56,462 bases of DNA from a virus. The notes below the pieces were generated by a model. It ran no database searches. It saw only the letters and a list, made by a program, of their open reading frames with translations, and was not told the DNA's origin. The position numbers and the translations under genes are program-made. Positions 6,143 to 38,282 of the stretch are shown here, piece by piece. Position 1 is the first letter of the stretch; every line of letters starts with the position of its first letter. Where the stretch lies: IMG/VR virus record IMGVR_UViG_3300021139_000017; one strand, given 5' to 3'.

Positions 6143-6625
6143 TTAAAAGCTGATTGTGGCTTGCACCGCTCCGAGCAACCCAGCTTTGTCAGTTGCACAG
6201 AATTTGTCTCCGGCCTCCGTCTCGATCCCCATATTTTTGGTAAGCCGAAATTCCAATGTGGCGTCAACGACGGTGTAATTGGAGCCATCGGTAAAATCTT
6301 TTCCCGCGCCCAATCTGCCACCAATAGCAAAACGCCAGAAAGGCCAGCGCACGTTGTAATCAACCTGGCTGTAATCAAACAAAAGCGCGTTGAGATGTGA
6401 AAAGCTGGTCACGCCGGCGCGGATGCCGCCGCCGTAGTGGATGGATTGCCAATATGTCCCGCCTAGTTCCGTTCCCGTGGACATGCGCGTAACAGGATGC
6501 GCGAATGAAAATGCCGGACCTGCCATAATTTCAATCTCGCTGGCAGCATAAAAATTCGTGCAAGATTGAGCTTTAGCACCGATGCAAATTACAAAAAACG
6601 CGATGAGTGTATAAAATATTTTCAT
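6143..6625 (-). CDS. small outer-membrane beta-barrel protein (OmpX/Ail/Lom size class)
   Basis: ATG at 6625 gives MKIFYTLIAFFVICIGAKAQ (signal peptide). The mature part is about 140 aa with alternating hydrophobic strands, Gly/aromatic girdles and a C-terminal ...ATISF (terminal Phe, BAM-type signal). Confidence 0.6.
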   Translation of the reverse strand: MKIFYTLIAFFVICIGAKAQSCTNFYAASEIEIMAGPAFSFAHPVTRMSTGTELGGTYWQSIHYGGGIRAGVTSFSHLNALLFDYSQVDYNVRWPFWRFAIGGRLGAGKDFTDGSNYTVVDATLEFRLTKNMGIETEAGDKFCATDKAGLLGAVQATISF

Positions 6626-7382: not shown

Positions 7383-7739
7383 TTATTTCTGATTTACACC
7401 TAGCCCCGTCGGTGCAGGAAATTGAATTATTGGCATCATAAATTGGTTTGTATCAAACAAAATTGGGGTCGCCATGCTCGAGGCTTCTGCCCCATTCCCC
7501 CAAGTTGAGCAGATCGTCAACCAACTCCCATTAGGCACCTGCTGGATTGGGATGTTTGTTGTCCCGGTATTGCACGAACCAAACCAGTGATTTGTGGCTG
7601 TGTTGTTTGTTGGACACCAATAAGCAGCATAGCCATTAACTCCATTCGTCGCATCAGACTGCGATGGAACGAATCCAAGCGAAAAGCTTTGCCCCATTGT
7701 TTGAGCAGCGATTAGGATAAATAACAAAATGAATTTCAT
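7383..7739 (-). CDS. small secreted Cys-containing protein
   Basis: ATG at 7739 overlaps the upstream stop (ATGA). MKFILLFILIAAQTMGQS is a signal peptide. The mature part has 3 Cys and is N/T/G rich. Confidence 0.55.
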   Translation of the reverse strand: MKFILLFILIAAQTMGQSFSLGFVPSQSDATNGVNGYAAYWCPTNNTATNHWFGSCNTGTTNIPIQQVPNGSWLTICSTWGNGAEASSMATPILFDTNQFMMPIIQFPAPTGLGVNQK

Positions 7740-9400
7740 TGAATTTGAAGTAGCGCATTGGTTTTCCAAGGCGTAACCGTGAAAAGCCAATTATTCGAGC
7801 AAACAATTTTAACGACCCCAGGAACAGGTATAAAGTTGCTAGCGTTGTAGTTTGTCGCCAGTAAAGTTGTGGTGTTAGTTAATCCGCCACCATTTCCAAA
7901 GAATTGTTCACCGGCAGGTAATTGAAAGCCGTTTGTGGTTAAGGTTGCCACCAGATTGGTGGGAGTGGCCGCTGTGGCAATGAACCATTGCTCGCCGCTG
8001 TTGGTGTTGAAAATGTAGTTGCGCACCCAGCCTGGCGAGCTACCGATCGGCGTGTAAATGTAGCCCACGTCATTCGCATAACCGCCGGCATTGAAGTTGG
8101 TGTAGTTGGCCGAATTGTAATAAAATCCGAAATAATTCTGCACATCCGACGTGCTACCGGGCTGATTCAAATACCAACCCGTCTCGGACGCGCCGTTGGT
8201 GTTCAGGTTTTGAATGACCACCTGGACATAGGTGTTGGTATTCCCAAGAACCGTGAGCGCATTCTGAAAATTGTTGCTGATGGTGTTGAGAGCAATATTA
8301 GTCAGTCCGGCTCCGTTGCCGATGATTATACTGCCAGTGGCAATGACGAGATTTGAATTTATGGTGACGTTGTTCGTCGTAATATTGATTGATCCGAGCG
8401 GAGAATAGCCAAGATTGACGATATCTTGATTCTGGTCAGCTTGGAAAATGGAATTACCGCGCACGTCATTAACCAGCGTCAAACCCGTCCCGCTGAACTC
8501 AAGCGACGGTGGCTGTGCATTAATTCCAAGGATTGCGCCAAAATAGCCCGACACCGTGGAGTGATGGACATACATGACGTTTGTGTCTGCCAGAAAGAAA
8601 TTAGCCTCTGGAAAAATTACGGGTGTGCTATTGGACTGAACCAACCCCAGTGTTGTCGAGTTGGTGAAATAAACATTCGCCGAATAAAGCGCGGTTTGCG
8701 AATACCCTAAATAATCCTGCTCTGCCAGTTGCGTGTAATTCGTCCCAGCGTGCGTCAGCCAGTAGTTACCGCCAATCCAGTTTGTAAATTTGATGTTTTC
8801 ACCAACAAAAAAACCTGCCCCGGCATCATAGACCTGAACCCCAATTTGGTTTGTTATCGTGTAATAAATGTTTGTGACATAAGAGTCTTGGATCGGACCT
8901 GTTGTGGCCGTTATAAAAGAATATGGCGAAGAGACACTTGTTATTAAATTATTGTAGTAAAAAACCCCATTTAAGCCCGTTCCGGCCCAATTCATTGCGG
9001 TGATGCCATTCACCGTATCAGGCAAAGTGCCTGAAGGAATAAAGTAATTGGTTGTGCTGACGCTGTATGGCGTTGCCACAGTTACGGCAAAATTAATTCC
9101 AAGATGCTGATTGGTAAAAATCACCACGCCATTCGTCAATGCTGGATAATTTGCAACATTAAATGTTTTCGAATCACCTGGATACCAAACCCCTCCAACG
9201 ACCACGGATCCTGCCGCCGGCGCCACACTTACCGAGCGCACTAACGCCGGAAAACCTCCGGACAACGATCCGAAATAAAATGCCACATTGTTGCTTTGTG
9301 CGGATGAAATGACCGCGCCGGCCAAGAAGATGGCAAACGCGGAAGTGAATAAGAAGCACGCCTTAAATCGGCGTGATAATGGAAAGCGTCTGGCAGTCAT
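7736..9400 (-). CDS. tail-fibre-like protein (554 aa) with an RR-containing signal-peptide-like N-terminus
   Basis: N-terminus MTARRFPLSRRFKACFLFTSAFAIFLAGAVISSAQS. N/T/S/G-rich beta-type composition. GNGAGLTNI and GNGGGLTN motifs resemble the G-x-G-x-GLTN repeats of phage tail fibres. Confidence 0.6.
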   Translation of the reverse strand: MTARRFPLSRRFKACFLFTSAFAIFLAGAVISSAQSNNVAFYFGSLSGGFPALVRSVSVAPAAGSVVVGGVWYPGDSKTFNVANYPALTNGVVIFTNQHLGINFAVTVATPYSVSTTNYFIPSGTLPDTVNGITAMNWAGTGLNGVFYYNNLITSVSSPYSFITATTGPIQDSYVTNIYYTITNQIGVQVYDAGAGFFVGENIKFTNWIGGNYWLTHAGTNYTQLAEQDYLGYSQTALYSANVYFTNSTTLGLVQSNSTPVIFPEANFFLADTNVMYVHHSTVSGYFGAILGINAQPPSLEFSGTGLTLVNDVRGNSIFQADQNQDIVNLGYSPLGSINITTNNVTINSNLVIATGSIIIGNGAGLTNIALNTISNNFQNALTVLGNTNTYVQVVIQNLNTNGASETGWYLNQPGSTSDVQNYFGFYYNSANYTNFNAGGYANDVGYIYTPIGSSPGWVRNYIFNTNSGEQWFIATAATPTNLVATLTTNGFQLPAGEQFFGNGGGLTNTTTLLATNYNASNFIPVPGVVKIVCSNNWLFTVTPWKTNALLQIQ

Positions 9401-9426: not shown

Positions 9427-10638
9427 TCACGGCCCCATCTGTTTCGTGTAAGTCGTAGTCCCGTTCGTCGAGCCGGTCAGGTAGAAAAATCCATTGCTGC
9501 ACCACATGCGGCCCCCCTTCTGATTTCCGAGGTCGGAGATTGTCGGCGTGTTGGTCTGCACCCAAAGGCTGAAAGCGTTGCCGATGGTCAATGGCGCGTA
9601 AAGGTTGGCCGTCGGGATGGCGGCTGTGCGCGGCCAAAAGAACATCTCCGGTTGCGTCGGGTAAATCGGAATGGTGAACGTGACTACACCGGCATTGGTT
9701 GAAATCGTGTAATTCGTGTAGGTCGTCCAGCCGTTCAACAACGACAGGTTTGTGCTGGATGAAATCACAAACGCTGACGGCAAATTTGTCTGCGGAATGG
9801 CCAAGAGCAAATTCGTCCCGGTGCCGTCAAGGCTCAACGAGTTGTAGAGCGTCACCGTCGGAAAGCCGATGTCGAAAGCCGTCCCGCCGAAGTGGCTGAC
9901 GATCTGGTGAAAATAACCGTTTGTGTCCGTGTTGTTTTGCCATTGGCCGGCAACCATGTTCTGCTCGGTCATGTCAACATAGTTTTTCGTCGCGGCATCC
10001 TGTGGCACAATCGGGTCACTGAACTGCGTGAACTGCCCATAGAATCCGTTTGTGCGGTTAATATATTCAGGGTGATCGACCGTCTGAATCACGACCGAGC
10101 CAAGCCCGCCGCCAGCGCCGACGACGGCCAGCGAATAAGTGTTTGTGACATTGACGTAATTCGTCAGCACGAACCACCCGGACGTTCCGTTTGTCGAAGC
10201 CCACACCTGCTCAAACACGTTTGTTGGAAAAGCCACGCCGCCGCCCCCAGCTTGGCCCGGCGAGAAGCTTAATTTCGTCCAACCGTTCGTGAACCGGCCC
10301 ACATAATTCGACGTGCCGAACGCCCAATAGTTTGACGAGAAGATTGTGAACTGCTGACTCGACAAAACGCTGTTGGATAGCGTCAGCACGGAATTGGTTG
10401 ACCCCCCGCCGCTGGATTGCGCCAGATTTGGTGACAGTGGATTCAACATCACCGCCCCGTTGGTATAAATGAAATCCACGGGCGAGAACCACATGTCAAT
10501 CGGATGGCCGTTTGCGTTCAGCACGCCGGGCGGCGTCACCGTCAGCACGGCGGACGGATAGTTCGTCGTGACGTTGAACGATTGCGAGTGCGCCAGCGCC
10601 AGCCAGCCGCACACAATGAGGATGAGGATGTTTTTCAT
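9427..10638 (-). CDS. tail fibre protein (403 aa) with a signal-peptide-like N-terminus
   Basis: ATG at 10638 gives MKNILILIVCGWLALAHSQS. The internal motif DPIVPQDAATKNYVD is the classic tail-fibre (P..DAATK.YVD) motif. Confidence 0.65.
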   Translation of the reverse strand: MKNILILIVCGWLALAHSQSFNVTTNYPSAVLTVTPPGVLNANGHPIDMWFSPVDFIYTNGAVMLNPLSPNLAQSSGGGSTNSVLTLSNSVLSSQQFTIFSSNYWAFGTSNYVGRFTNGWTKLSFSPGQAGGGGVAFPTNVFEQVWASTNGTSGWFVLTNYVNVTNTYSLAVVGAGGGLGSVVIQTVDHPEYINRTNGFYGQFTQFSDPIVPQDAATKNYVDMTEQNMVAGQWQNNTDTNGYFHQIVSHFGGTAFDIGFPTVTLYNSLSLDGTGTNLLLAIPQTNLPSAFVISSSTNLSLLNGWTTYTNYTISTNAGVVTFTIPIYPTQPEMFFWPRTAAIPTANLYAPLTIGNAFSLWVQTNTPTISDLGNQKGGRMWCSNGFFYLTGSTNGTTTYTKQMGP

Positions 10639-10645
10639 AATAGTG

Positions 10646-12979
10646 TCAGTAAAAGGTGACGGAGCCGTAAAACGAGCGGGTCTTGCACGTTTCGCATTCG
10701 CCCTGAATCTCGGTCGAAATCCATTGCGTTGTGTCAGACCAGCCAAATGAAGTGATACAGCGGTTGTTGATGATTTCCGACACGCTGCCATCGGTGTGAA
10801 TTTCCAGACGATTCGGCGGCAACGCGGGCTTTTGGCCGATGGTTGGCGGGATGGTTGGCGGCGGCACAGTGATTTGAATTGGATTGTCATTGAACATCCG
10901 CCGCGCTTGATCCACGGCCTGCCACATGCCGTAACCGTTGGCCAAAGTTTTGCAGACACCATTCAGCGTGAAGGAAATGTAGGGAGGACAATTCGCGGGC
11001 GGCGGCACAGGCGGCGGCGGCGAGTTTGTGCCAGGCGTCGGCGTGTAAGGCGGCGGATTCGTTGCCGGAGCCTCGATGACGTAGGTGAACTGGTAGGAGC
11101 CGGGCGGCGTCCCGTAAATGGCCCCGTTCGGCCCGATATACCACCAACTCGTGTTGGTCGTGGTGAACATCACTTGCGAGTAAGGATTTCCAATTAAACC
11201 GTAGCCAATCCAGTTAGCATTGTTGGAAATTGCAAACCAAGTGTTAGATGGCGGAATCATCGTAACATTGGTTACATAGGGTGAAGCTCCAACACTGCCC
11301 GTCAATGTGATGGTTTCATTCGTCAATGGTAGAATGGTGACATTGTTGGTCAGTGCGTAATAAAACCACCACGCATTCGAGTTGTAGAGTGCCCAGCAAG
11401 TGATGTAGGAATACTGGTTCGTCAACGTGCTGTTGGTGTAAATCAGATAGGCCGTGTCAATCGGCAGAAAAACCGATGAGCGATTGCCGGTCGGATTGGT
11501 GACGATGATGGACGAAACCTGCCAGTTGTAATTCGTGGACATGGCCGCGAGCTTCAACACTTCCCCGCACGCGTTGGTGAATGAACCCAGCCCCCATTGC
11601 GGCGACGGATAAAATGGCCCGCTGTTGTTCGGACACGTCGGCCCACCCATGACGAAGCCGCAAGCGTTGGTGTAAATGAGCGAAAGAAAGTTTGTGCCAT
11701 ACTGGTTGACGACAGGCGGAATGTTCGTGTCGAGGATGTAAGGGCCGGCAATGTTTGTGCAGCCCGGCAGATAAATCGCGTTGCTGTAATTGATGAAGCC
11801 GCACGCATTCGTGTAGGCATTCGCGGCAATGTTCGTGTTCAAATAATACGGCGGTGCCATGTTGGTGCAGCCGGGATTGAACACCTTGTTGGACACGCTC
11901 ACGAAACCACACGCATTCGTGTAGAGGTTGTTCGTCCAAAGCAGATACGGCGGCAGACCGTTCGTGCAAGCCGGATTCGTGCTGGTGAGGATGAAGCCGC
12001 ACGCATTGGTGAACAACCCCGTGCCAAGATTCGTCGCCGCGAAATACGGTGGCCCGGCGTTCGTGCAAATCGTCGGGTAAGGATTCGTGAACGTCGTCAC
12101 CGTCATGTTGCTCGACAGAACGAATCCGCAAGCGTTCGTGTAGAGATTATTCGTCCAGAACCAAAACGGCCCGGCAGAGTTCGTGCAAGTTACCGGGAAA
12201 AAATTCGTGTAGCCCGCAATGCCGTTGGTCAACATCGCCATGCCGTTCGCGTTGGTCACAACACCCGCGCCGATGCCGGGCGCGGCGAAATACGGCCCCG
12301 CCGTGTTCGTGCTCGATGCCGGATTCAGAATCAGCGCGGACTGCCCGCAATCGTTCGTGAAATGAAAACCGTCCACCGAATACCAGCCATCCGGGCAGTT
12401 GGTCGGCGCGGGAAAGCTGATGCCGCCAAGACTGGTGATCGGATAAAACGGATTCGTGCTGGTGAGCGTGAACGTGTTGGAGATCGTCAAGTTGCTGCCG
12501 ACGCCGTTCGTGATGGTCAGATAATTCGTGCCCGCACTTCCACCCGGCCCGCCCACCGTCGCGGCGATGTTTGTCATCAGCGTCAGCAACGTCGAGTTCG
12601 TCGGTGCGTTGGCGCTGACGATTGAGCCGATGGCCGCAGAACCAGCCGAGGAAAATGTGTTCGCTGCCGACAGCCCAATGACGACGCCATTGAGCCAGAA
12701 GTTTGTCAGGCCGGACGGCGGCGGGTTGGTGGCAATCCAGTTGTTGAGCCAAGCCCAGTTGCCATTAATGTCCAACTGCGTTTGGTGCAACGATTCGCCC
12801 ACCGTAACCGAATTGGTCTTGGTGTTCGTCGCCGCGCCGTTGGTGACTACGCCGGGAATGGTGATGCTCGACGTGGTGACATTCGTTGTGGTGTAGATCG
12901 TCGTCGTGTCGAGGTTGGTGAGTTGGGCGCGAGCCGTCATCACCAGCATCAAGAGTGTCAGGATGGATTTTGTTTTCAT
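10646..12979 (-). CDS. fibre-like protein (777 aa) with a signal peptide and about 8 Cys-pair repeats
   Basis: ATG at 12979, 4 nt after the upstream stop, gives MKTKSILTLLMLVMTARAQ. Internal repeats end in (Y/F)TNACGF. A Pro-rich stretch PPPYTPTPGTNSPPPPVPPP lies near the C-terminus. The upstream 115 codons of the track ORF overlap the previous gene and are rejected. Confidence 0.65.
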   Translation of the reverse strand: MKTKSILTLLMLVMTARAQLTNLDTTTIYTTTNVTTSSITIPGVVTNGAATNTKTNSVTVGESLHQTQLDINGNWAWLNNWIATNPPPSGLTNFWLNGVVIGLSAANTFSSAGSAAIGSIVSANAPTNSTLLTLMTNIAATVGGPGGSAGTNYLTITNGVGSNLTISNTFTLTSTNPFYPITSLGGISFPAPTNCPDGWYSVDGFHFTNDCGQSALILNPASSTNTAGPYFAAPGIGAGVVTNANGMAMLTNGIAGYTNFFPVTCTNSAGPFWFWTNNLYTNACGFVLSSNMTVTTFTNPYPTICTNAGPPYFAATNLGTGLFTNACGFILTSTNPACTNGLPPYLLWTNNLYTNACGFVSVSNKVFNPGCTNMAPPYYLNTNIAANAYTNACGFINYSNAIYLPGCTNIAGPYILDTNIPPVVNQYGTNFLSLIYTNACGFVMGGPTCPNNSGPFYPSPQWGLGSFTNACGEVLKLAAMSTNYNWQVSSIIVTNPTGNRSSVFLPIDTAYLIYTNSTLTNQYSYITCWALYNSNAWWFYYALTNNVTILPLTNETITLTGSVGASPYVTNVTMIPPSNTWFAISNNANWIGYGLIGNPYSQVMFTTTNTSWWYIGPNGAIYGTPPGSYQFTYVIEAPATNPPPYTPTPGTNSPPPPVPPPANCPPYISFTLNGVCKTLANGYGMWQAVDQARRMFNDNPIQITVPPPTIPPTIGQKPALPPNRLEIHTDGSVSEIINNRCITSFGWSDTTQWISTEIQGECETCKTRSFYGSVTFY

Positions 12980-12983
12980 AATT

Positions 12984-15695
12984 TTAGGAGCCGTCGGGAA
13001 CGCCGAGCAGCAAGAGCGAGTTTTCCAGATCGTTGAAGATTTCAACGGACATCGGGAATTGAGTTTTGGAAACCACCATTTGCCCCGGATACGACAGGCT
13101 GTTGAATGGATAGTTGGCCAGATGGCGGCTGAAAAAGTTGACGAACGCGCCGCAGTATTCAAACGCCGTCGGACTGTAACCGCCGTTGCCGAAGCCGTAT
13201 TGTTGCGCGTGGAAAAGCGGTTGCCAGTTCGCCAGCACTTCCAGAATGATTTGCGTGTTTGCCTGATAAACGATTTCCGTCCCGGCCAACACCGGCCAGA
13301 ACACCGAGACGTTTCCCGTGTCACGGCCCGCTGCCGGAATGGTAATGGTGAACGGACTCACGCCATCGGCCTTGAAGAATGGTTCAAACACCAGCGAGCC
13401 GTCCCACGCCAGCCGGTTCTGCCCCACGGTGACGACGATGGCCGCGCCGCTGGTTGGCGTTACCATGATTCCGTCCGTGTTCGCCACGGGCAGACGCCGG
13501 GCGCACAGATTGAAAATGCAGTAGCCGTTTTGCGGGATTGGCTTCTGCCCCCCGGTTAGTGCCGTGTAGCCGATGTCCACCCGCGCATTCCCCGTCAGGC
13601 AATTACTGAAAGGCTCATTCGCCAGCGGGAAGTATTGCCGCGCCGGAGCCGCCGAAAAATCCATCTCGACGACGATGGCAAACGACACCGCCACGCCGTT
13701 CGTGTTCTGGATCGTGAATCGGAAATCACCAAGCCCATTGATGATGTTTTGCAGATAGTTCGCGCCGCCCGCGTTCGGAATGACCACGGAGTTACCCGCC
13801 GCAATCACGAAATCGTAAGTCGCCGGGTTCGCCGGATTCGGCCACCCAGCTTTCGTGCTGACAAAGATTTTCAGATTGGATGCCAGCGCGGTGCCCGCGC
13901 TTAACTGGCCATTAACCCAGCCGAGTCCTGGCGTTCCGGGTTGAACCAACGTCAGCTTGATCCCCACGCAAGTAGATGCGGCCACAAAACCGAAGTCCGA
14001 AAACGAATAGTTGTTGGATGCCCCGGCCAAAAGCGTCTGGCTGGCACTGGTGTTGAGGCGCGACTGATAGTTTGAACCGAGATTGAACGGGACAAAATCC
14101 GTATCCCGCAACACCGCCCACGTCGCCGCCTGTGTCTGGCACGACTGATTGATGATGTTGAAATAATGCTCGCCCGAATCGTAAGCCACGCCGCCGATGG
14201 TGAGGTAGTATTCGCCACGGTCGAACAGCGTCATTTGCCGCATCGAGCTTGCTTGAATCGGAAAGAACGCCGGAACTGGATTGTCGAGATAGTCCGGCAA
14301 CAGATTGAACAGACCCGGCGAGCCTGCCACACCGCCGCCGCTGCTACCGTAGCCGCTGACGTATGGCGGAATGTCGTTGTCGAGAAAAACATTCAGCCCC
14401 GGCGTCGGCAACGTCATCGCCACCCAGACGCCTTTGACGGTCGCGTCCGACAACTGCCAGAATGAGCCGTGCGCCGTGCCGTTGAGCGTGAACGCCGCGC
14501 CGACACCCGGCCCCGTGATGGCGTAGCCGTTTGAGCCGGGATGCACCACGTTGACAGGTTTGAACGCCGCCGTGCTGCCAAAGCTCAATGACGAGGTGTA
14601 GGCGGCATAAACTCCCACCAATGGATAGGGATTTGAATTGAGCGTGTAACCCGCCGCTGGATTGGCAGTCAGCGTGATTGTGCCGCTGCCCGGCGCAATG
14701 ACCGTCGTGAAGCTCGCCACCAAAAGAAAGTTGCCCGGTGAAACGGTCTGCGTCGTCCAGACTGGCGCGACTCCGATTGCCGACGGAGTGAACGCCGCCG
14801 CCGCGGGCAATGCCGCGCCCGTGAAGCCCCACGACACTGTAACCGTCCAAGTGCCTTCCGTGTCGGCAACGTAATTCAACGTCGCCGTCTGCGCCACCCC
14901 AGCCGTTGCGCCGGTCAAAAGTTGGCCGCTGGCATTTCTGCCGGCTGAAACCGAGAACCCTGGCTTGGCATCCGCCGCCGCGTAATAAAACTGCACGTTC
15001 TTGAAAACCGTCATGCCGCCGTAATCGCCGAGCAACTGCCCTTGGACGGTCTGCGGGAATGTCACCGGATCGTTGACGCCGACACACCAAGGCCCGCTCA
15101 AAACCGCCGCTGGCGTCAAATACAGCCCGGCATTGATTGGCACACCGGCATTCGCCCCAAAGAGCAGCGTCCAGTAATCGCCCCGGATGCGGTTCAATTC
15201 CTGCCGCCAGTTTTTCAGGTTGAGTTGCACCGAAGCCGTCACCGGCAGGTAAGGCGTCCCGTGCAGAATCGCCGACGTGCAACCGTAGGACTGGATAAAT
15301 TCGCCGCCCGGATTGGCGTCCGCGTTGTTGTAATAAAACGAATTGCCGGATGATGTCGGAAACGTAATGCCCGAACCCGCCGCCGCTTCGTTCGCTCCCG
15401 CCGTCCAGTTGTAAAACCGCTGTGCGAGAACGGCCAGCGTGTAATTGCCGCTGCCGTCATACGTCGCACCGGGCGGAACGAGATTGATGCTCAACGTGCC
15501 GTTGCCGAAGTTATAGGCCGGTTGCGGATAAACCAGCGTCGTCTGGTTGGCGTCAACGAAGTAGTCGAACGACTGCGAAATCGGCCAAGTTCCGGCCCAG
15601 ATAGCCGCATCCACAAGCGGTTTCAAAACCTGATTGGCCAAGGCCGCGAGTCCGGCAAAGTCGTTTTGCGAGATGATGGCTCCGCGCGTTGGCAT
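12984..15695 (-). CDS. large baseplate/central-fibre (Tal-position) structural protein, 903 aa
   Basis: Long ORF in the tail module downstream of the tape measure and the Dit-position gene. No signal peptide. No specific motif recognised. Confidence 0.55.
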   Translation of the reverse strand: MPTRGAIISQNDFAGLAALANQVLKPLVDAAIWAGTWPISQSFDYFVDANQTTLVYPQPAYNFGNGTLSINLVPPGATYDGSGNYTLAVLAQRFYNWTAGANEAAAGSGITFPTSSGNSFYYNNADANPGGEFIQSYGCTSAILHGTPYLPVTASVQLNLKNWRQELNRIRGDYWTLLFGANAGVPINAGLYLTPAAVLSGPWCVGVNDPVTFPQTVQGQLLGDYGGMTVFKNVQFYYAAADAKPGFSVSAGRNASGQLLTGATAGVAQTATLNYVADTEGTWTVTVSWGFTGAALPAAAAFTPSAIGVAPVWTTQTVSPGNFLLVASFTTVIAPGSGTITLTANPAAGYTLNSNPYPLVGVYAAYTSSLSFGSTAAFKPVNVVHPGSNGYAITGPGVGAAFTLNGTAHGSFWQLSDATVKGVWVAMTLPTPGLNVFLDNDIPPYVSGYGSSGGGVAGSPGLFNLLPDYLDNPVPAFFPIQASSMRQMTLFDRGEYYLTIGGVAYDSGEHYFNIINQSCQTQAATWAVLRDTDFVPFNLGSNYQSRLNTSASQTLLAGASNNYSFSDFGFVAASTCVGIKLTLVQPGTPGLGWVNGQLSAGTALASNLKIFVSTKAGWPNPANPATYDFVIAAGNSVVIPNAGGANYLQNIINGLGDFRFTIQNTNGVAVSFAIVVEMDFSAAPARQYFPLANEPFSNCLTGNARVDIGYTALTGGQKPIPQNGYCIFNLCARRLPVANTDGIMVTPTSGAAIVVTVGQNRLAWDGSLVFEPFFKADGVSPFTITIPAAGRDTGNVSVFWPVLAGTEIVYQANTQIILEVLANWQPLFHAQQYGFGNGGYSPTAFEYCGAFVNFFSRHLANYPFNSLSYPGQMVVSKTQFPMSVEIFNDLENSLLLLGVPDGS

Positions 15696-16944: not shown

Positions 16945-18636
16945 TTAAGGTCGGTTATCGCGTGTGTTGTGAACTGGGAATTGTTGTGGCCGCGTTCCAA
17001 GCTGCGGTTTGCGTTCCCCTGGTGGATGATTTGATGGCGGATGCACTGGCGTTATTTTATGGTCAATGGACCGAAGCGTGGCCAGTTGCTGCAATTCAAT
17101 TGGCGCGGTAGCTGCATATGCCCCAATGCGCTGATTGCTGTTTAGGGAATAACTGCGATTTTCACCTTTATCACCTTTTTTTTCTGCCAAATCACGCGCC
17201 TTTTCTTCTGCAAGTTTTGCCGCAGACTCTTCAGCCGAATCGGTGTTTTTAGCTGCATTCGATTTTACGATGTTTGGAATCTCCAATCCGATTTGAGCAG
17301 CATCACCGGCTGCTTTAGCAGCATCTTTATTTAACTGCTCTTTGGTTTTACGGGTTTGATCATTGATTTCAACCTTATCAGCATAGGCGTTACGCTGGGC
17401 TATCATCTTTTGAGCAAGGTCTTGCCCCCCTTCTTCCGTTTGGCTGATCAGTTGCTGGCTAGCGCCGCCCAAATCCATGGCAGCTTGTTTCTTAAATTCC
17501 TCCCAAACACCGCCTCCCTTCAAAAACTTTTCAGCGGCTTCGGCATTCTGATTCAATTGGCCAAGATTTTTCTGATCCTCTTCCTTGGTATTAACCTTGA
17601 TACTGTTCGCCTGCTTCAATTTATTTTGAGACTCAATTTCCAAATTGGTCTTTTCGGTTAGTTTGTTTGCGAGTTCAGATTTTTGCTGGTCTTTTTCAAG
17701 CTGCAACTCTTGGCCGGCGTATTTTGCATTGATGGCTTCTTTTTCCTCCGGAGTTTTAGCCGCAACGAGTTCGGTGGCTTTTTTAATTTCCAGCATTTTT
17801 TTCAAATGGTCGTAATGCTCCTTGATTGTGTCCAATTCTCGTTTCGCCGCCGCTGCTGCCGAATTGTAAGCGGCAGTTGTCTTTTGAACCTCATCAGTGA
17901 TTTCCTTTTGAGCATTGCGCGCGTCATTGAGATGGCGCTTTAGAAGCGGGATGTAATCATCTTTTAGATCGGACGACCCGCTGAATGTCAGCGAATCAAG
18001 CAAGCTTTTAACACCCCACACACGCTCATAAAATACACCCGCCGCCAATGCAATTACTCCAAAGATTGCCGTGACGCCAAGCATGGATAGCCCTGCGCCC
18101 CTCGTTGACGCCGCCAATGCTTCCTGAGCAACGGCGTCCGCTTCTGCGGCGGATGCTTTACGACCCAAGGCTGCTGCGGTAGCATTTGCTGCCATTGCTT
18201 CCGCAGCATCGGCATCGGCTGCAACCAGCGTAGATTCGATTTCAAAGCCTTCAGCTTCGGCTTCGGCCGCTGTCGCTTCTGCCTTGCGCATGGCTGCCGT
18301 CGCCGCCATGTTCGCATTTAAAGCCGCTTCCGCGTAGCCATCCGCCAGCATTCGCGCTGCTGACGCTCCTTGCTGTGCTGCTCGAGATGCGCTGCTTATG
18401 TATTGAATCAAGAGTGACAACGAACCAAGGATTCGCCCAACGCCGCGCCCCATCATAATCTCGCGTCCGATAACGGTTGTTTCTCGAATCATTCCTGTCA
18501 TGCCAACCGTATGCCCACTGGCAGCGCTGGCAGACATTCGGCGCGCAGCGATCGTGGTCATGGTCTGCATCCGCGCAAGTTCCGCTTGAAACTGCGTCGA
18601 GTTTGCCCCAAAAATTACTGTGACAGCGCTGGCCAT
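16945..18636 (-). CDS. tape measure protein (563 aa)
   Basis: An Ala-rich helical N-terminal third, hydrophobic segments (GLSMLGVTAIFGVIALAAGVF), then a long K/E/Q/A coiled-coil. Lies downstream of the tube and chaperone-position genes. At about 0.15 nm per residue this predicts a tail of about 85 nm. Confidence 0.7.
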   Translation of the reverse strand: MASAVTVIFGANSTQFQAELARMQTMTTIAARRMSASAASGHTVGMTGMIRETTVIGREIMMGRGVGRILGSLSLLIQYISSASRAAQQGASAARMLADGYAEAALNANMAATAAMRKAEATAAEAEAEGFEIESTLVAADADAAEAMAANATAAALGRKASAAEADAVAQEALAASTRGAGLSMLGVTAIFGVIALAAGVFYERVWGVKSLLDSLTFSGSSDLKDDYIPLLKRHLNDARNAQKEITDEVQKTTAAYNSAAAAAKRELDTIKEHYDHLKKMLEIKKATELVAAKTPEEKEAINAKYAGQELQLEKDQQKSELANKLTEKTNLEIESQNKLKQANSIKVNTKEEDQKNLGQLNQNAEAAEKFLKGGGVWEEFKKQAAMDLGGASQQLISQTEEGGQDLAQKMIAQRNAYADKVEINDQTRKTKEQLNKDAAKAAGDAAQIGLEIPNIVKSNAAKNTDSAEESAAKLAEEKARDLAEKKGDKGENRSYSLNSNQRIGAYAATAPIELQQLATLRSIDHKITPVHPPSNHPPGERKPQLGTRPQQFPVHNTRDNRP

Positions 18637-30329: not shown

Positions 30330-32996
30330 TTATTGGTTGCAGGAATCAGCGCTGCGGGTGAACGCCTGAGCATGCCGGACAGCCACGTCGAAATAGTTGT
30401 TGAACGTGATGGCGATTTCGTCGCGGTCGGCGCGAGTCCAGTTGTCCACCACCGAAACCACCCCACCGAAGATGCCGATCATCAGGTTTTCAAACACGCC
30501 CGCCAAAAGGATGTCGCCGGGGATCTGTTGCGTGGCAATCGCTTTTTGGTCAAGGATGGTGCCGTCCAGTTCGTCACCTTTCCAGATGGCTTCATCGGAA
30601 TTGCTGACGACTGTTGCGCCAACCAGCGTCTTGGGCAAAACAGCCAGGCGACCTTGGCCAACACTGGTCGTGGCGAAAGCGAGCGGACCAGGCACATTGA
30701 ATTTCCGAATCAGCGTGCGAAGGCTTACGATCTGCGAATAAGACGGCGTGCCGCCGAAAATGATTTGATTGATGCCGGGCTGATTCAAGATGCCAAGCGG
30801 CTGGTCGGCCGCGCCGGAACCGTTGATGCCCATCGCGTCGATGTAACGGGCGCGGACCTGCGCATGATCATTCCAAATCAGCGATTCCACATCGTAAGAC
30901 GGCTGCAACACTGCGAGCCGGCTGTAATACTGGCGGGAACCGACGCGGTGCGGCTCCATCTTGATCTGACCAAGCACCTGGTCATACGCATTAAGCTGCG
31001 CACCTTCCGGCAGCGATTGCGCCACCGTGGACGCTTCCAAGCGCGGGAACACCAGCGGGCCGGTCAAACCGGAAAGAAACGTCGCGCCGAGTTCGGCAAG
31101 CGCGATGCGGTTGCGGAGCAAATCAATCCACGGCATGAACTGAGGCGCAACGAGCGCGCCGCCAGTGGCGAAGTCATTCGCCAAGAAATCACGCTTCATG
31201 CGACCGCCGGACAGGTCTTTGCGCTGCACGCGTGAACGGGCATTGTGCGGCATGATGAATCCGCCCTGCTCGGTAATGCGCTGGCATCCGGGAATTTCGG
31301 CCAACTGGGCGCGAATGCCTTCGTCCGCTTCTTTTTCGGCGCCGTCAAACGGCTTCAAGCCGGTGGAAGCATAGCCGCGCTTTTTGGCCTCCTTGACCAT
31401 CGAGCGAATGGCCCCAAACAAATCGCAGGCGTTCGCCACTTCATCCGGAGCATTGACCGCTTCGATGAGATTCGGCTCGGCCGAGGAATCGCGCTTCAGA
31501 TCATCGACCTTGCTGCGGAAAATCTGGCGCACTTCGGCATCCGGCTTGGAATCGTCCATCGCCTGCGCTTCCAGGGCGGCGATGTTGATTTTGTCACGGA
31601 GATAAAACGGCTGTTTTTTGCCGTCGCGGGTTTCGCGGCCAACACGATTGCCAAATTCCTTGGTAAACTCGGTGGCGAGGGTGGCAATTTCCGTATTGCG
31701 CGCTTTGAAACGGTCGCTGCGCGTTTTGGTTTCGGCCTCGACGGTTTTCCGCTGAATGAAGCCTTTTTCCGCCAAAGCTTTTTGGACGGCAGGCGTTTCC
31801 AGACTGTCAATGACGAGTTCCGGTGTCAGGGTCTTGATTTCTTCGGGCATAAATTTTCGAGTTAAAATGTTTGGTGCGGTTTTAGCCGCTTCTGTATTTT
31901 TATTTGAGTCAACCGAACGGGATTTTTCCGCGCGCGATTTCGCGCTATCGACGGGCTGATAAGATCCCACCCATTTAACTTCGGTCGCCTCGCCGAGCGT
32001 TACCGCTTCATCCTCATATTCAAAAACAACCTCCCAATAGGTTGAATCCATCCAGTTGTAGATGATTGCCATCCATTCGCCCGCATCCTGATCCAAAATA
32101 ATGTCCTGGACAAAGAATGCGCTGAACACGTCGCCATTCTCGCGCTTGGATTTGAAACGCTTGTCAGAATCTGCCGCTACGGAAACCATTTGGCTTAGTT
32201 CGCCAAACGAGACTTCATCCGCGGCATCGCGGGTAAATTTAAAATCGGACTTCTTGGCGGCTTTGCGGGTTTTAATAGCCTCACGTTTCGCGCGAATCTC
32301 GGCCTCGCAGCCGCATTCAAAGTTTTCATCGAGCATGGCGCGGTCAAACATATTGCCGCAACACAAGCAGGCCCATTGGCCTTCAGCGCTACGGCGCACA
32401 CCTGCGCGATTGGAGTCGGCCGGCGTCCGAACGGAACTGATTTCGTCTGCCGCCCAGGCGAGGCGTTTGATCGGGTAGCCGTCCTTTTCGCCTTCGTCGG
32501 CAATAAATGCCGTGTGCCAATAGCCGGTGGAAATGCCGGTGCGCTCACCACGCTTCATCTGTTCGTAGCGGGTATTGGAGAGTTCGGAGAGTCCATCGAA
32601 TTTCAGCACTGCCCGGCTGACGTTATCCTTGCTGCGTTTGGCGCGCGGCACTTTGCCGATTTGCAGGGAATTTTCATGTTCGTCGAGCACCGTGCCTTTT
32701 CCGCCGTCAAGCTCGGAAAAATCCACATCCTCTTTGCGATGGCTTAAAAGCTCCCAATACTTCGTGCCTTTCGTGGCAATGCCCAAATCCTCATCAAATT
32801 GGGTGGCCTTGCGCAAAACCAATTCCTCGCTGGCGAAGCAAACCTGGATGGTCTTCTCATCATCATCCGCACTGTCAGTCTCCACGGTGGAATAGCGGAA
32901 AAGATGTTCAGCCTTTGCGCCGCGCGTGTTTGACTTAGCCGGAAGTTTGACAGCCGGCGTTCCCGTCGGCTTTTTCTCGTTTTCAGTTTTCGCCAT
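30330..32996 (-). CDS. fused HK97-family prohead protease / scaffold-like region / HK97-family major capsid protein (888 aa)
   Basis: The N-terminal third (...LDEHENSLQIGKV...GISTGYWH...ADEISSVRTPADSNRAGV) resembles peptidase S78/U35. A CLCC...CGC knuckle follows. The central region is a charged coiled-coil. The C-terminal ~300 aa (GGALVAPQF...LPEGAQL...GINGSGAADQPLGILN...) matches the Phage_capsid (HK97) family. Confidence 0.8.
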   Translation of the reverse strand: MAKTENEKKPTGTPAVKLPAKSNTRGAKAEHLFRYSTVETDSADDDEKTIQVCFASEELVLRKATQFDEDLGIATKGTKYWELLSHRKEDVDFSELDGGKGTVLDEHENSLQIGKVPRAKRSKDNVSRAVLKFDGLSELSNTRYEQMKRGERTGISTGYWHTAFIADEGEKDGYPIKRLAWAADEISSVRTPADSNRAGVRRSAEGQWACLCCGNMFDRAMLDENFECGCEAEIRAKREAIKTRKAAKKSDFKFTRDAADEVSFGELSQMVSVAADSDKRFKSKRENGDVFSAFFVQDIILDQDAGEWMAIIYNWMDSTYWEVVFEYEDEAVTLGEATEVKWVGSYQPVDSAKSRAEKSRSVDSNKNTEAAKTAPNILTRKFMPEEIKTLTPELVIDSLETPAVQKALAEKGFIQRKTVEAETKTRSDRFKARNTEIATLATEFTKEFGNRVGRETRDGKKQPFYLRDKINIAALEAQAMDDSKPDAEVRQIFRSKVDDLKRDSSAEPNLIEAVNAPDEVANACDLFGAIRSMVKEAKKRGYASTGLKPFDGAEKEADEGIRAQLAEIPGCQRITEQGGFIMPHNARSRVQRKDLSGGRMKRDFLANDFATGGALVAPQFMPWIDLLRNRIALAELGATFLSGLTGPLVFPRLEASTVAQSLPEGAQLNAYDQVLGQIKMEPHRVGSRQYYSRLAVLQPSYDVESLIWNDHAQVRARYIDAMGINGSGAADQPLGILNQPGINQIIFGGTPSYSQIVSLRTLIRKFNVPGPLAFATTSVGQGRLAVLPKTLVGATVVSNSDEAIWKGDELDGTILDQKAIATQQIPGDILLAGVFENLMIGIFGGVVSVVDNWTRADRDEIAITFNNYFDVAVRHAQAFTRSADSCNQ

Positions 32997-33465: not shown

Positions 33466-35316
33466 TTAATGAAGTTCACCATTGTTGGACATTTTTAACA
33501 ACGCCTCCATTGAAATCCTTGACCGGCTGCGTGCTTTTTTTCGGACTGGATTGGATGTTTTGGTTTTGGATGGTGCATTTCCTTCTTCTCCCACATCCGG
33601 CAAGGTTTGCCCGGGCTGGCCTTTGCTAATATCGGGGCGCGTCACATCAACCTCATCGAAATTAAGCCCGTTGTTATCGAGAATGGATTTCTCGTTTTTA
33701 AGCAGTTGTGCCAGTTTTTCAAAGCTCATGCCTTCCGGCAACTGATCTTGAACCTGTTGGCGCGTAAGGTGCCCAGCTTCGTTCAAGATGACCAAAGCCT
33801 GAGCTTGGACTAGCGGATTTACAAACGGCCAACGACGCCCTTTAAAATGAGCGGCATCAATATATTTTTCATATTCCGACAAGAAGATTGGCTCGCCACG
33901 CTTGTCAAAGTAACCTTTCTTAATGGCCTCTTTCAGCCATACAGCAAAAATCTCATCAACCCCACCATCGACCATGTTTTTCTGCCTGACTTTGCAATGA
34001 TCCTGAAATGGAATCTGGCACATCAAGCCGGCAATGAATCCAAGGTTTTGGAAATCACCGCTCGTATGCTGATAAGTGATGCCGGCGCCGACGGCAATTT
34101 CGCGCAAGTTGTCTTGGCGGAACTCGTGGGCGGCTTCAATCGGAAACTTTGGATCCAGAATCTTTGCTTCCACACCGTATGGCAATTCACGTTCCATGCC
34201 CGGTTTCATGGTCTGCGTCGGAACACCGTTCCCCTGTTGCAATTTTGCGGGGTCGCTCGTGACACCGACGCCGGGCATACCACCTTCAGCGTTGGCTATT
34301 TGCTCGGCCATTTCTGGCGTAATGCCAATGCCCGTCGGAAATTTCTTTTCCAGGACGAATGGCTTCATGGTGCTGGCCAGCGCCGCGATTGTAAGCGACT
34401 TTGAGTATTGTTGGTTGCGCCAGACAGGTTGCGTCACCGCATCCAATTCCGTCATGCCAATATCCTGCTCGGCGCGGTCCCGGAGATTGTTGAAATGAAC
34501 AATGTCTGAAGCCGGCACCTGCTCGCGCCATTGATCGCCTCCGTCCTGCCGGCTTTGGCCGGTAGGATTTACCAATTCGCCAGGATGACGACGCAAAAGC
34601 CAATAAGCCAAAGCGAAGTTGAATCGCGGCTCAAACTCAATGGAAAAGCGAATCGGATTGCCGCCTCCAAATTTACCACTGGCCGGAGACACTCCCATGT
34701 AATTTTCTTGCAAATGATCTTCTTCCAGAAAATCAACCGCATAACCAAATTCATTGTATTGAAAATCGCGGTAGTGGCGGCAAATAACGGAGCCAGCCTC
34801 GACTAGCTCGGCCTCTATCATGCGGCCGGCTTCCATGGCCGACATGTTTTTGCGCACCGTGAAATTTTTCTTTTTGTGGAATTTCTTCCATGCCTCCTCA
34901 ATGGCGCGGCTCTTAACCTGGTCTTTGGTGAAATTCCCCTCGCCGTCGAACTCACCCAGCATCATTTCCAATTCAAAAAATTTGTGTCCGACTACGTTAT
35001 TTTGAAAGGTTCGCTTAATGGCTTTGCCGTGCGCAGTATCCTTGCCCAGCGTTCGTGTGCGGCTCCGGACTTTGTGCTTCGATTGGAGCACTTCGGTATT
35101 GGGCGAGCCGTAAGTTGAACGCAGATCGGAATTGTAATTGTCCGTGTTGGCCGCATCGTAGGATCGCTTTTGCCGCTCATTCAAAGTCTCAATTTCGCGC
35201 ATGGCGCGGATAAACTCCGGTCGCATCACCGGCATGGGCGATATAAGCTGCGAGCCATGCTTCACACCTTCAACGGGGGCCGACGCAGAACGGACTAATT
35301 CAAATGAAAGTTTCAT
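33466..35316 (-). CDS. portal protein, lambda (gpB) family
   Basis: ATG at 35316 overlaps the upstream stop (ATGA). YDAANTDNYNSDL...KVRSRTRTLGKDTAHGKAIKRTFQNNVVG and the overall length fit the Phage_portal_2 pattern. Sits two small genes downstream of the GpA-type terminase. Confidence 0.75.
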   Translation of the reverse strand: MKLSFELVRSASAPVEGVKHGSQLISPMPVMRPEFIRAMREIETLNERQKRSYDAANTDNYNSDLRSTYGSPNTEVLQSKHKVRSRTRTLGKDTAHGKAIKRTFQNNVVGHKFFELEMMLGEFDGEGNFTKDQVKSRAIEEAWKKFHKKKNFTVRKNMSAMEAGRMIEAELVEAGSVICRHYRDFQYNEFGYAVDFLEEDHLQENYMGVSPASGKFGGGNPIRFSIEFEPRFNFALAYWLLRRHPGELVNPTGQSRQDGGDQWREQVPASDIVHFNNLRDRAEQDIGMTELDAVTQPVWRNQQYSKSLTIAALASTMKPFVLEKKFPTGIGITPEMAEQIANAEGGMPGVGVTSDPAKLQQGNGVPTQTMKPGMERELPYGVEAKILDPKFPIEAAHEFRQDNLREIAVGAGITYQHTSGDFQNLGFIAGLMCQIPFQDHCKVRQKNMVDGGVDEIFAVWLKEAIKKGYFDKRGEPIFLSEYEKYIDAAHFKGRRWPFVNPLVQAQALVILNEAGHLTRQQVQDQLPEGMSFEKLAQLLKNEKSILDNNGLNFDEVDVTRPDISKGQPGQTLPDVGEEGNAPSKTKTSNPVRKKARSRSRISMEALLKMSNNGELH

Positions 35317-35531
35317 TTTTGGATTTCCATGCGGAACTCTTGGGGTGACGGAATGGCTCCTGACGGCCTTGGCGGTGCTTCCACCTGCACCCAAAATTCG
35401 TTTTTTGTCGAGTCATAGCCCGACCGAATAATTTTTGCGTTCGCCGGCAAGTCAGAACTCAATTTGCGCAGGCTTCCGCCAGCGGCAAATTTGAGCATCG
35501 TTTCCGGTGTAATGGTGATGTTTTTCGCCAT
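35313..35531 (-). CDS. hypothetical 72-aa protein (gpW-position)
   Basis: Small ORF between terminase and portal, ATGA-coupled to the portal gene. Confidence 0.4.
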   Translation of the reverse strand: MAKNITITPETMLKFAAGGSLRKLSSDLPANAKIIRSGYDSTKNEFWVQVEAPPRPSGAIPSPQEFRMEIQK

Positions 35532-36131: not shown

Positions 36132-38282
36132 CTAGGAAGCTTCCGATTCTTGCACCGTCTCGGGCGTGCTCACGGCCGCGCTTCCGTCAATCGCATTGCC
36201 GAGCATGTTGTCCATAAGCTTGCGCACGAGCAGCATCTTGCGGCAGTCAAGATAATGGTTGTCGGGCCGCTTCTTTTCCCAATACGCCTTGCCGCGCCGT
36301 TCGGTGCGGTATTCGGCGTTGATTTGCCGTTCATAAGTCAGGTCGCCCACCTCGCGCGCCTTCGTTTTGTCATCGAGTTGGGATCGGTCAAGCGTGTGGA
36401 TTTTTGGCTTTCCGTCGCCGCCGGTCATCAATTCATGCAACTGATCACTGATGGCAATGTTACTCCACTGGGTCGTATAAACACGCACCGCCTGGGTGTG
36501 GCCATTGACCGAAATAAATTTTTCATGCGAATGCGGCATCGAATAAGGCTTCAACACCGTCCGATTGCTGTTAGGCGTCCCCCATTTGAAATAAGCTGCG
36601 TCATCACCCAGCAGGATTTTCCAGCATTGCCGGTATTTTTTTAGCCACGGCTGGAACTTTCTCAATAGCGGATCGGTCACGTCCACCAGTTCGGAATAGT
36701 CTGCCGCTTTTTGCAAAATGTCCGGCGTCCATTTCCGCCCGTCAATCACCACCCGCGCATTCGGAATCTGCCAGCGTTTCTGGATGGCAACGACTTCTTC
36801 CCATGCCGTGCAAAAGTGGCGAGCCAAATCCCATGAATTGCCGCGCTTATCCACCACTTCCACCAACACCCAGAACGAACCCGGCACATCCTCATCGGCG
36901 GCGGCGTCAATTTTCTTCTGCACGTCCACGGACATATTGCGGCTATGTTCGTCGGCAATCAGACTGTTGGGGTCATAACTGCCGATGGTCGGTGAAAGTT
37001 CCATGCCGGCCGTCTGGCCCTTTTCGTAGAACACAGACCGCTCCGCACAAAACCAATCTTGCAGCGGAATCTCATTCCCCTGGCTCTTGGCATGTTTTGC
37101 AATCAAAAAACTCGCCACCGTTTTTTCAAAACGATTATCCTTGTTTGCCTCGAATGGCAGCACGAAACAAACCTGCTTGGGCGGCATCTTGATTCCGTTA
37201 ATGACGGTTCTATAATCCTGCGTGTAGGTTTCCGCGATGGCTTCACGCTCCGCCTTGGTGTCGTTGATATGGTGTCCGCAATGCAAGCATTCCCAGTAAG
37301 CCATGCGCGCCCTTTGCGCAACGTCACGCTTACCCTCGTCATCGTCGGGTATGATCATGCCCGCGTAAGTCCCCGGCTTTGGCGTGGTTTCTAGCAACGC
37401 CGTTTCGCCGCCAATGGTCACGGTTGCAATCTTCAAAGATGGTCGAGGCTTGAAATCATCCGGCCGCTTGAATGACCAATGGCGCCACTCGAAGCTCTGC
37501 TCGCCATTGCACGCTGGACAGCGCCAGACCAAAGGCACTTGCAGCACATCTTTTACGGCTCGGTGTAAATCTGTTCCGGCAATTGACGCCTGCGACTCGT
37601 TGAGAATTTTACAGGTGTTTTCAAACCGATCTGCGCGCTTAAAAGCTTTGAACAACAAACCGTCTTTCGGGTGCTGCCACGCTTCCGAAATCCATAGGTA
37701 TTGCCATGAGAGCGATGATGTATGTCCGTCATTCAATCCAGCCACAAGCAGCGAACTGTAAGGCGTCTTGATTCGTGTCCCGGTTGTTCCAAATCTATTT
37801 TCCTCCATCGCCACGGCAATCATCCTGGCCAAAACGGGATGCTTTTTGACCGTCTCAATGGCGCGATGCTGGCAATACAAATCCGCCTTGGGATCATCTT
37901 CAAACAACACCAGCATTGCCGCACAAAGATGTTCCAGAAGATAAACCGCCCAAATGTCACCGCAAAGCGACTTCATAACTTGTGTCGCGCCTATAACGTG
38001 GACAAATCGCACAAAACCGTCCAACAAGGCCAGCAGGGGGCCGTTCAAATGGCGGGCAGACTCAATGCAAAAATGTCCGTCCTGTTCCGCCGGCATGGAC
38101 CGATATCCATCGCCCACCAACTTGAACCTTTTACAATTGTCGGCAATGGAACCTCGAAAGCTACGGGCGATACCATTCCACAATGAACGCTGCAAATGCA
38201 ATGCGGCACGTTCATTCGCCAGAAATTGATTATCCGAACTCACTTTGATTTTAAGTTCAATTTTTGACCATCTCGCTTCCAA
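36132..38282 (-). CDS. terL: terminase large subunit, GpA (lambda A) family
   Basis: FVHVIGATQVMKSLCGDIWAVYLLEH parallels lambda gpA VNVVKSARVGYSKMLLGVYAYFIEH. The central VWRCPACNGEQSFEW parallels HVACPHCGEEQYLKF. The track start is TTG, and there is no ATG in the first 62 codons. Confidence 0.75.
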   Translation of the reverse strand: MEARWSKIELKIKVSSDNQFLANERAALHLQRSLWNGIARSFRGSIADNCKRFKLVGDGYRSMPAEQDGHFCIESARHLNGPLLALLDGFVRFVHVIGATQVMKSLCGDIWAVYLLEHLCAAMLVLFEDDPKADLYCQHRAIETVKKHPVLARMIAVAMEENRFGTTGTRIKTPYSSLLVAGLNDGHTSSLSWQYLWISEAWQHPKDGLLFKAFKRADRFENTCKILNESQASIAGTDLHRAVKDVLQVPLVWRCPACNGEQSFEWRHWSFKRPDDFKPRPSLKIATVTIGGETALLETTPKPGTYAGMIIPDDDEGKRDVAQRARMAYWECLHCGHHINDTKAEREAIAETYTQDYRTVINGIKMPPKQVCFVLPFEANKDNRFEKTVASFLIAKHAKSQGNEIPLQDWFCAERSVFYEKGQTAGMELSPTIGSYDPNSLIADEHSRNMSVDVQKKIDAAADEDVPGSFWVLVEVVDKRGNSWDLARHFCTAWEEVVAIQKRWQIPNARVVIDGRKWTPDILQKAADYSELVDVTDPLLRKFQPWLKKYRQCWKILLGDDAAYFKWGTPNSNRTVLKPYSMPHSHEKFISVNGHTQAVRVYTTQWSNIAISDQLHELMTGGDGKPKIHTLDRSQLDDKTKAREVGDLTYERQINAEYRTERRGKAYWEKKRPDNHYLDCRKMLLVRKLMDNMLGNAIDGSAAVSTPETVQESEAS

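Follow-up and report, generated by a model that had tools for sequence, protein, structure and literature searches.

What does an array of cysteine-paired repeats do in a protein that is encoded among the late genes of a phage and is preceded by a signal peptide for export? The question is raised by IMG/VR record IMGVR_UViG_3300021139_000017, a stretch of 56,462 nucleotides (nt; the whole of it is called the window below), which is a complete or near-complete uncultivated phage. Its minus-strand gene for a 777-residue protein, P0001, had been singled out in a preliminary description for about eight degenerate repeats of 33–42 residues, each with a conserved pair of cysteines. We observed that the array is a real and previously uncatalogued tandem module of ~32 residues. 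As to its role, we lean slightly towards a shaft stapled by disulfides and adjustable in length, within a fibre-like protein that is predicted to be exported.

The array consists of seven Cys-pair units and one Cys-less unit and spans residues 192–478 of P0001 (Table 1). These residues correspond to window positions 11546–12406, in agreement with the 11545–12405 given earlier, and all the peptides quoted at that time are present in the translation. In the window we counted six matches to a degenerate DNA word for T-N-A-C-G, all within the array, against an expectation of 0.03. We built a hidden Markov model (HMM) of the unit from 24 units taken from homologues only, so its application to P0001 is not circular. 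This HMM recovered seven units in the open reading frame (ORF) of P0001 with independent E-values (i-E) of 2e-5 to 3.5e-13. When all six frames of the window were scanned with it, the next best ORF had an E-value of 0.37 and nothing else was found. The leading unit falls below the HMM threshold and was recognised solely by the features given in Table 1.

The Cys1-to-Cys1 period is 33–42 residues in P0001, with a mode of 32 in the family, where the loop between the two cysteines has a modal length of 21 residues. The consensus of the unit is P-x-C-T-N-x-[AN]-G-P-Y-[YF]-[LP]-[DA]-[TP]-N-x-G-x-x-x-[YLF]-T-N-A-C-G-F-[VI]. The elements C, T/P-N, G-P-Y and T-N-A-C-G-F are nearly invariant, and variation is limited to the central loop and the linker, a pattern of conservation that appears scaffold-like.

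The two cysteines of a unit are kept or lost together. Both were present in 38 of the profile-aligned units and none of these carried a single one; on inspection, units without the second cysteine were also without the first. The full tally, which adds the metagenomic locus L003, P0020, P0021 and the leading divergent unit to the profile-aligned set, came to ~54 units with both cysteines, none mixed and ~12 with neither, and the equivalent of the leading unit in homologues likewise has both or neither. Fisher's test on an earlier tally (47/0/0/11) gave 4e-12, a value that overstates the significance because of the relatedness among the sequences. Double losses were seen at least six times separately, each within a single unit whose neighbours have their pairs intact, and the single-unit protein P0009 keeps its pair. 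Given that no loss extends beyond a unit and that the pair is retained where there is just one unit, the first cysteine would pair with the second cysteine of the same unit, located either on the same chain or on a neighbouring chain of an oligomer. One disulfide per module, as had been suggested from the P0001 sequence, is therefore most likely, and the conservation of both cysteines in homologues supports it.

The pairs could instead bind metal ions, or bond between the chains of a trimer and not within the module of one chain, which we consider rather improbable. A metal site is unlikely, since each unit offers just two cysteines and lacks a further conserved ligand such as His or an acidic residue, and the oxidising compartment reached after export favours disulfides. 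Same-unit bonds between chains would fit the co-loss of the cysteines equally well. The report on the Agrobacterium phage Milano describes an inter-chain network of tail disulfides, and the Cys pairs of its fibre beads appear in the paper's table (PMC10811340). Mini-inserts of the CxC or CxCxC type are present in the inter-unit linkers of P0005 (residues 80–86), P0007 (107–111), P0011 (17–22) and P0010 (248–258), with the sequences TNCGCG, ICNC, VCGC and CGCSC...C. Because cysteines so close together cannot easily bond with each other, these inserts hint at inter-chain knots in an oligomer. Inter-chain bonds would, however, be a variant of the stapled shaft and would not contradict it.

We searched for relatives of P0001 in several collections. 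An exhaustive HMMER search of 1.84 billion representatives returned 18 family proteins, word-indexed searches added two, and a DNA-pattern scan of metagenomes gave eight loci, L003 being the one true relative. The seven other loci were rejected as low-complexity or chance matches; L002, L004, L005, L006 and L008 (Ga03079xx contigs) are low-complexity His/Thr/Pro-rich repeated DNA that matched the two-motif DNA pattern by chance and is unrelated to the family. No relatives were found in IMG/VR by protein, DNA-pattern or unit-profile scans, among isolated phages by tblastn, or in a species-genome collection by one DNA-pattern scan. The family amounts to ~20 metagenomic clusters, all of them environmental.

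Members of the family share a layout, in which a signal peptide is followed by a conserved N-terminal domain of ~170 residues, the Cys-pair array and a conserved 'TNY..V.SI.VTN...LIFTN' segment. A variable insert comes next, then a conserved beta-rich region, a Pro-rich linker and a conserved C-terminal domain of ~110 residues with an aromatic end. The insert ranges from 0 to ~150 residues (100–150 when carried) and is located in the region that matches residues 479–640 of P0001. Cys664 and Cys765 of the C-terminal domain are invariant and P0001 ends in the aromatic pair F-Y; an extra Pro-rich insert at about residues 696–722 of this domain is present in P0001 alone. P0013 and P0018 match the family in the N-terminal domain only and then diverge, their distal parts being altogether different. 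As this domain is common to homologues with quite different distal parts, it is presumed to be the anchoring end.

The number of units per protein ranges from one (P0009, P0014, P0015) to seven or eight (P0001, P0003, L003), so the length variability proposed for the array was borne out when repeat numbers were compared among homologues. A terminal 'C-P-N-x-N-G-P-Y-Y' unit and a penultimate 'C-T-N-T-A-G-P-Y-x-L-D' unit hold their positions in nearly all members. Unit 7 of P0001 is the terminal one ('CPNxNGPYY..P.[WY]G'), and its unit 6 is the positional counterpart of the penultimate one ('CTNTAGPY.LD').

The repeats had also been described as recombination-prone, and this part of the interpretation, otherwise largely right, did not stand. 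In 37 of 47 cases the closest relative of a unit belongs to a different protein, which indicates that the array is ancient. Tandem Repeats Finder reported nothing on the array DNA, whose copies have 65–84% identity over ~25 nt of the motif core, the longest pair being 70 nt at 74%. The 70% likeness between units 4 and 5 of P0001 points to some lineage-specific duplication within the otherwise ancient array. The DNA copies are old and diverged, and the array is not recombination-prone today.

The shaft is favoured because the scaffold positions are conserved, the loop and linker vary, and the copy number varies between two conserved ends. In another explanation the array would be a multivalent ligand-binding surface, where each disulfide-closed loop offers a binding site for a repeating glycan or a surface protein and the number of units tunes avidity instead of length. 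Carbohydrate-binding proteins are often designed as tandem repeats rich in aromatics; here the aromatics are conserved in every unit and the variable central loop accepts insertions (11 residues in unit 6). A GDSL esterase domain in a protein neighbouring the family member of L003 (see below) also suggests a polysaccharide receptor. However, the most conserved positions are identical across units and homologues, which is typical of a scaffold and not of specificity determinants. The variable or swappable parts of the family are located elsewhere, in the insert after the array and, for P0013 and P0018, in the entire distal part, and profile searches gave no similarity to carbohydrate-binding families. 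We regard a binding array as unlikely.

No named repeat family had been recognised in the units by eye, and the database searches bore this out. P0001 had no family in Pfam or NCBIfam (E up to 1) or in PHROGs (E up to 0.01–0.1), scans of the homologues P0003, P0008, P0009, P0010, P0017 and P0021 gave no credible family, and searches of PDB sequences and with the unit profile gave no match. The sole family match of P0011 was discarded as a sub-cutoff chance match.

Fold searches with predicted structures gave no match either. AlphaFold2 modelled full-length P0001 (17 sequences) with a mean predicted local distance difference test score (pLDDT) of 47.8, and searches of VIA and BFVD with this model matched N-terminal helices or noise only. 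For residues 400–777 (12 sequences) the mean pLDDT was 64.2. Searches with this model reached a VIA Z of 4.8 and a Foldseek E-value of 1e-2 at best, with only weak jelly-roll-like rows for the middle region, and no fold was assigned. In the C-terminal domain the model has short strands and one helix, and fold searches with it were without match. The ESM Atlas modelled the sequence poorly (pLDDT 0.37) and gave no usable neighbours for the whole protein or the array. The AlphaFold2 secondary structure of the units was consistent, though at low pLDDT: each unit has short strands at P-Y-x-L, x-Y-T and G-F-V-x, three in all, and a tight hairpin turn at N-A-C-G.

Next, we consider export. The N-terminus of P0001, MKTKSILTLLMLVMTARA followed by QLTN, has n-, h- and c-regions, a small-x-small site and Gln at position +1. 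Signal peptides were assessed by eye. The same n/h/c layout followed by Gln was found in all 12 full-length homologues, and all five proteins of this phage with signal peptides of the signal peptidase I (SPase I) type have Gln at +1 (ARA/Q, AHS/Q, SSA/Q, TMG/Q and AKA/Q, the slash marking the cleavage site). P0001 is thus predicted to be a Sec/SPase I substrate, and its predicted cleavage site obeys the Bacteroidetes Q-rule. In Bacteroidetes the mean Q-value is 71%, whereas most Chlorobi stay <9%, Ignavibacterium being one of the outliers (PMC5837995). As export leads to an oxidising compartment, disulfides are the natural reading of the Cys pairs, and they would probably form outside the cytoplasm. 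The preliminary description had not linked the array to this conserved signal peptide, from which the disulfides gain their plausibility.

The Q-rule points to a probable Bacteroidota or Ignavibacteriota-like host. A Shine-Dalgarno motif precedes 9 of 39 genes, and this low use is compatible with a Bacteroidota-type host. No relative of the large terminase was found in isolated phages. The major capsid protein has relatives that infect a variety of Proteobacteria and are too distant to inform on the host. The Bacteroidota O-glycosylation sequon D-[ST]-[AILVMT] was observed three times against 1.0 expected, without clear enrichment.

The gene occupies a place in the late region where fibres could be expected. 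On the minus strand the order is the tape-measure-like gene, genes for 288 and 903 residues, P0001, and genes for 397, 554 and 118 residues, which are followed by membrane, lipoprotein and lysis-type genes; P0001 comes after a weak tape-measure match and two large unannotated genes and before the membrane and lysis genes. Because no tail gene gives a profile match, it is gene order that makes a fibre position reasonable for P0001. Its assignment as a putative tail fibre or receptor-binding protein is backed by this order, by the modular architecture and by synteny with a fibre-like protein in L003. There, a homologue of the 397-residue neighbour in the window comes after the family gene and before an 881-residue signal-peptide protein. 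The latter (L003:2490–5135, plus strand), two genes downstream of the family member, begins with a Q-rule signal peptide and has a fibre-type motif, GNGSGLTGL; at its C-terminus Pfam gives a GDSL/SGNH esterase domain with E 5.9e-7, just short of the cut-off. The combination resembles a receptor-destroying fibre that is exported and may carry a receptor-modifying enzyme.

The signal peptides also suit a different explanation, that P0001 is not part of the virion but an exported envelope or surface protein serving, for example, in superinfection exclusion, receptor masking or adhesion, with the array as the stalk of a cell-bound adhesin, much as in trimeric autotransporters. Four consecutive genes encode conserved, apparently cleavable Q-rule signal peptides, and the paired cysteines would fit such a protein. 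Porphyromonas phages are reported to encode Q-rule proteins of unknown function that are thought to alter the host envelope (PMC10367356). The mosaic adhesive trimer (MAT) fibres of Bdellovibrio bacteriovorus, which have a signal peptide, a conserved N-terminal domain and a tip that varies, show that this design can operate at the surface of a cell (PMC10769870). However, the four genes take up ~5.6 kb, ~10% of the genome, inside the late structural array and exactly between the tail and lysis genes. Moreover, if these four are not fibres, the 903-residue upstream protein is the sole large unannotated late candidate for host recognition. Pfam and NCBIfam searches detected neither a C-terminal sorting domain of the type IX secretion system (T9SS) nor an autotransporter anchor: Por_Secre_tail (TIGR04183) and CHU_C (TIGR04131) had no match in P0001 at E up to 1, although a very divergent domain could escape, and the YadA-type membrane anchor PF03895 was likewise without match. 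The envelope protein is a possibility to which we give well under even chances.

The investment of ~5.6 kb in the late array favours a virion role, and the signal peptides favour an envelope step. Both would be reconciled if a fibre matured in the periplasm and docked at lysis. We offer tentatively, as a doubtful proposal, that the fibre is oxidised and perhaps pyroglutamylated in the periplasm, forming a chain of disulfide-stapled, new-fold beads of evolvable length, and docks only at lysis on particles assembled in the cytoplasm. The new fold would then owe its existence solely to the routing of this lineage's fibres through the Sec pathway of the host.

Several points weigh against the stapled shaft. 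Array pLDDT was 30–65 in both AlphaFold2 runs, which were of the monomer, so there is no confident structure; an intertwined trimeric fibre would be expected to model poorly as a monomer, though the failure is no proof of one. The conserved aromatics (Y11, Y/F12, Y/F/L22 and F28) would suit sugar binding as well, and total Cys counts are odd in some homologues. The tail module is almost unannotatable by profile searches, which makes the 'fibre position' weak, and the putative placement in the virion comes from order, architecture and synteny. The host was assigned from the Q-rule and the low use of Shine-Dalgarno motifs, and there is no enrichment of the Bacteroides -7 promoter motif in the window. 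Finally, known tailed-phage fibres are assembled in the cytoplasm, so that a secreted one would require a post-lysis or envelope step.

For the shaft we propose the following. The conserved Sec/SPase I signal peptide, as seen in the sequence, is predicted to expose Gln on cleavage, and the bonds would form extracellularly or in the periplasm, the host being probably of the Bacteroidota type. One disulfide would close each module, from the first cysteine to that of the N-A-C-G turn, as co-conservation and co-loss suggest. The modules, numbering one to eight by sequence comparison, lie between the putative N-terminal anchoring domain and the distal beta-rich region with the C-terminal domain. 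Most likely they stack head to tail, and the resulting stiff shaft, hardened by oxidation, would determine how far this fibre-like late protein reaches. The shaft would probably be a trimer of beta-hairpin beads, like the short tail fibre of phage Milano.

If the shaft is real, a ~32-residue, one-disulfide repeat in one to eight copies would be a natural 'ruler' for the length of a fibre, and engineered shafts of phages or adhesins that are hardened by oxidation could be built from it. Cysteines that are kept or lost in pairs would be independent sequence evidence for the idea that fibre-like proteins mature outside the cytoplasm in some phages of Bacteroidota-type hosts, an idea that challenges the textbook view of wholly cytoplasmic tail assembly. 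Docking of a periplasm-matured fibre at lysis, if true, would be an assembly route as yet undescribed in tailed phages. The immediate reach is limited to ~20 clusters, wholly environmental and with no cultured host.

The positions of the features are collected in Table 1. The coding part of P0001 (10649–12979) translates to 777 residues. The longest ORF around it is 10646–13324 and the 903-residue upstream gene stops at 12984; the start was set at the Met at 12979, where homologues begin. The public gene call, P0002 (767 residues), starts at Met11 (window 12949–12979) and so truncates the signal peptide, removing its n-region and half of its h-region. The longer start was preferred because the longer form is conserved in homologues. 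The two signal-peptide proteins downstream of P0001 have no domain detectably in common with it. The dipeptide Thr-Asn is strongly over-represented in the three large signal-peptide proteins (window 10649–12979, 9430–10620 and 7739–9400, minus strand), with counts of 47 vs 12.6 +/- 3.1, 17 vs 4.7 and 20 vs 7.3 in shuffles. It is not enriched in the 903-residue upstream protein or the capsid protein, nor is the reverse Asn-Thr enriched. The excess may reflect a structural turn motif or a modification site.

Table 1. Features of P0001 and of the surrounding window (residues refer to P0001; HMM, the unit HMM)
Feature	Residues	Window position	Strand	Basis or remark
P0001 gene, 777-residue protein, fibre-like and predicted to be exported		10646..12979 (including stop codon)	minus	ORF and homologues
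Sec/SPase I signal peptide, MKTKSILTLLMLVMTARA/Q	1–18	12926..12979	minus	predicted cleavage exposes Gln19
Conserved N-terminal domain	19–191	12407..12925	minus	homologue comparison
Leading divergent unit, CPDGWYSVDGFHFTNDCGQ, Cys195/Cys211	192–215	12335..12406	minus	position, Cys pair, TN-x-CG ending
Cys-less unit, S-TNTAGPYFAAPGIGAGVVTNANGM	220–252	12224..12322	minus	HMM i-E 2e-5; both Cys positions substituted
Unit 2, Cys265/284	262–301	12077..12196	minus	HMM
Unit 3, Cys305/327	302–334	11978..12076	minus	HMM
Unit 4, Cys338/357	335–367	11879..11977	minus	HMM
Unit 5, Cys371/393	368–403	11771..11878	minus	HMM
Unit 6, Cys407/440	404–445	11645..11770	minus	11-residue loop insertion
Unit 7, Cys449/471	446–478	11546..11644	minus	
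Beta-rich middle region	479–640	11060..11545	minus	AlphaFold2 pLDDT about 63–78
Pro-rich linker	641–662	10994..11059	minus	
Conserved C-terminal domain	663–777	10649..10993	minus	AlphaFold2 pLDDT 84–90
SPase-I-type signal peptides		12926-12979, ~10580-10638, ~9290-9400, ~7680-7739, ~6560-6625	minus	
Tape measure, weak match		16945-18636		PHROG profile, E 0.002
Capsid protein		30330-32996		PHROG profile
Portal		33466-35394		PHROG profile
Large terminase		36132-38282		PHROG profile

How does the array compare with known systems? The Tenebrio antifreeze protein is a beta-solenoid of 12-residue TCT repeats in which one disulfide per repeat stiffens the stack. Both proteins have short Thr/Asn/Cys-rich repeats; the period (12 vs 32), motif, organism and function differ, and the likeness is a design analogy only.

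In their Q-rule signal peptides, the Porphyromonas gingivalis phage proteins (PMC10367356) and the Bacteroidetes Q-rule substrates (PMC5837995) are like P0001, with an SPase I signal peptide that exposes Gln. Unlike P0001, the P. gingivalis phage proteins are not described as fibre-like or repeat-bearing (PMC10367356). The MAT fibres of B. bacteriovorus resemble P0001 in being exported and phage-fibre-like; in them a signal peptide and a conserved beta-rich N-terminal domain precede a long fibre whose distal domains can be swapped (PMC10769870). They are, however, surface proteins of a bacterial predator, whereas P0001 is encoded in a phage late operon; the word 'disulfide' has no occurrence in the main text of that paper, and the search of 1.8 billion representatives returned the P0001 family alone, without MAT proteins.

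The Milano short tail fibre gp31 (PDB 8FQC) is closest in design. According to its report (PMC10811340), gp31 is a trimer with an N-terminal attachment domain, two bead domains that make up a slender middle part and a distal beta-sandwich or jelly roll. Its beads have ~35–40 residues, three beta-hairpins and one Cys pair 17–18 residues apart (84/102 and 127/144). The units of P0001 have 32–42 residues, one Cys pair and hairpin-like AlphaFold2 strands (pLDDT 30–65, no fold match). The two proteins differ in the number of beads or units (two vs 7–8), in the signal peptide, which gp31 is without, and in the motif (C-x-L-P..G..A-G-C-[FI]-D-G in gp31 vs C-T-N..G-P-Y..T-N-A-C-G-F in P0001). Alignment of P0001 with gp31 residues 82–160 gave an hhalign probability of 0.2% and a BLASTP E-value of 1.0, that is, no sequence relationship. 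The likeness to the Milano beads and to MAT fibres is by analogy only, homology being undetectable. The order of parts, the module size and the single Cys pair per module are nevertheless alike in gp31 and in P0001, as far as the latter is known from its sequence. The array is a very narrowly distributed new repeat family and would be a variant of the known theme of the disulfide-stabilised fibre shaft.

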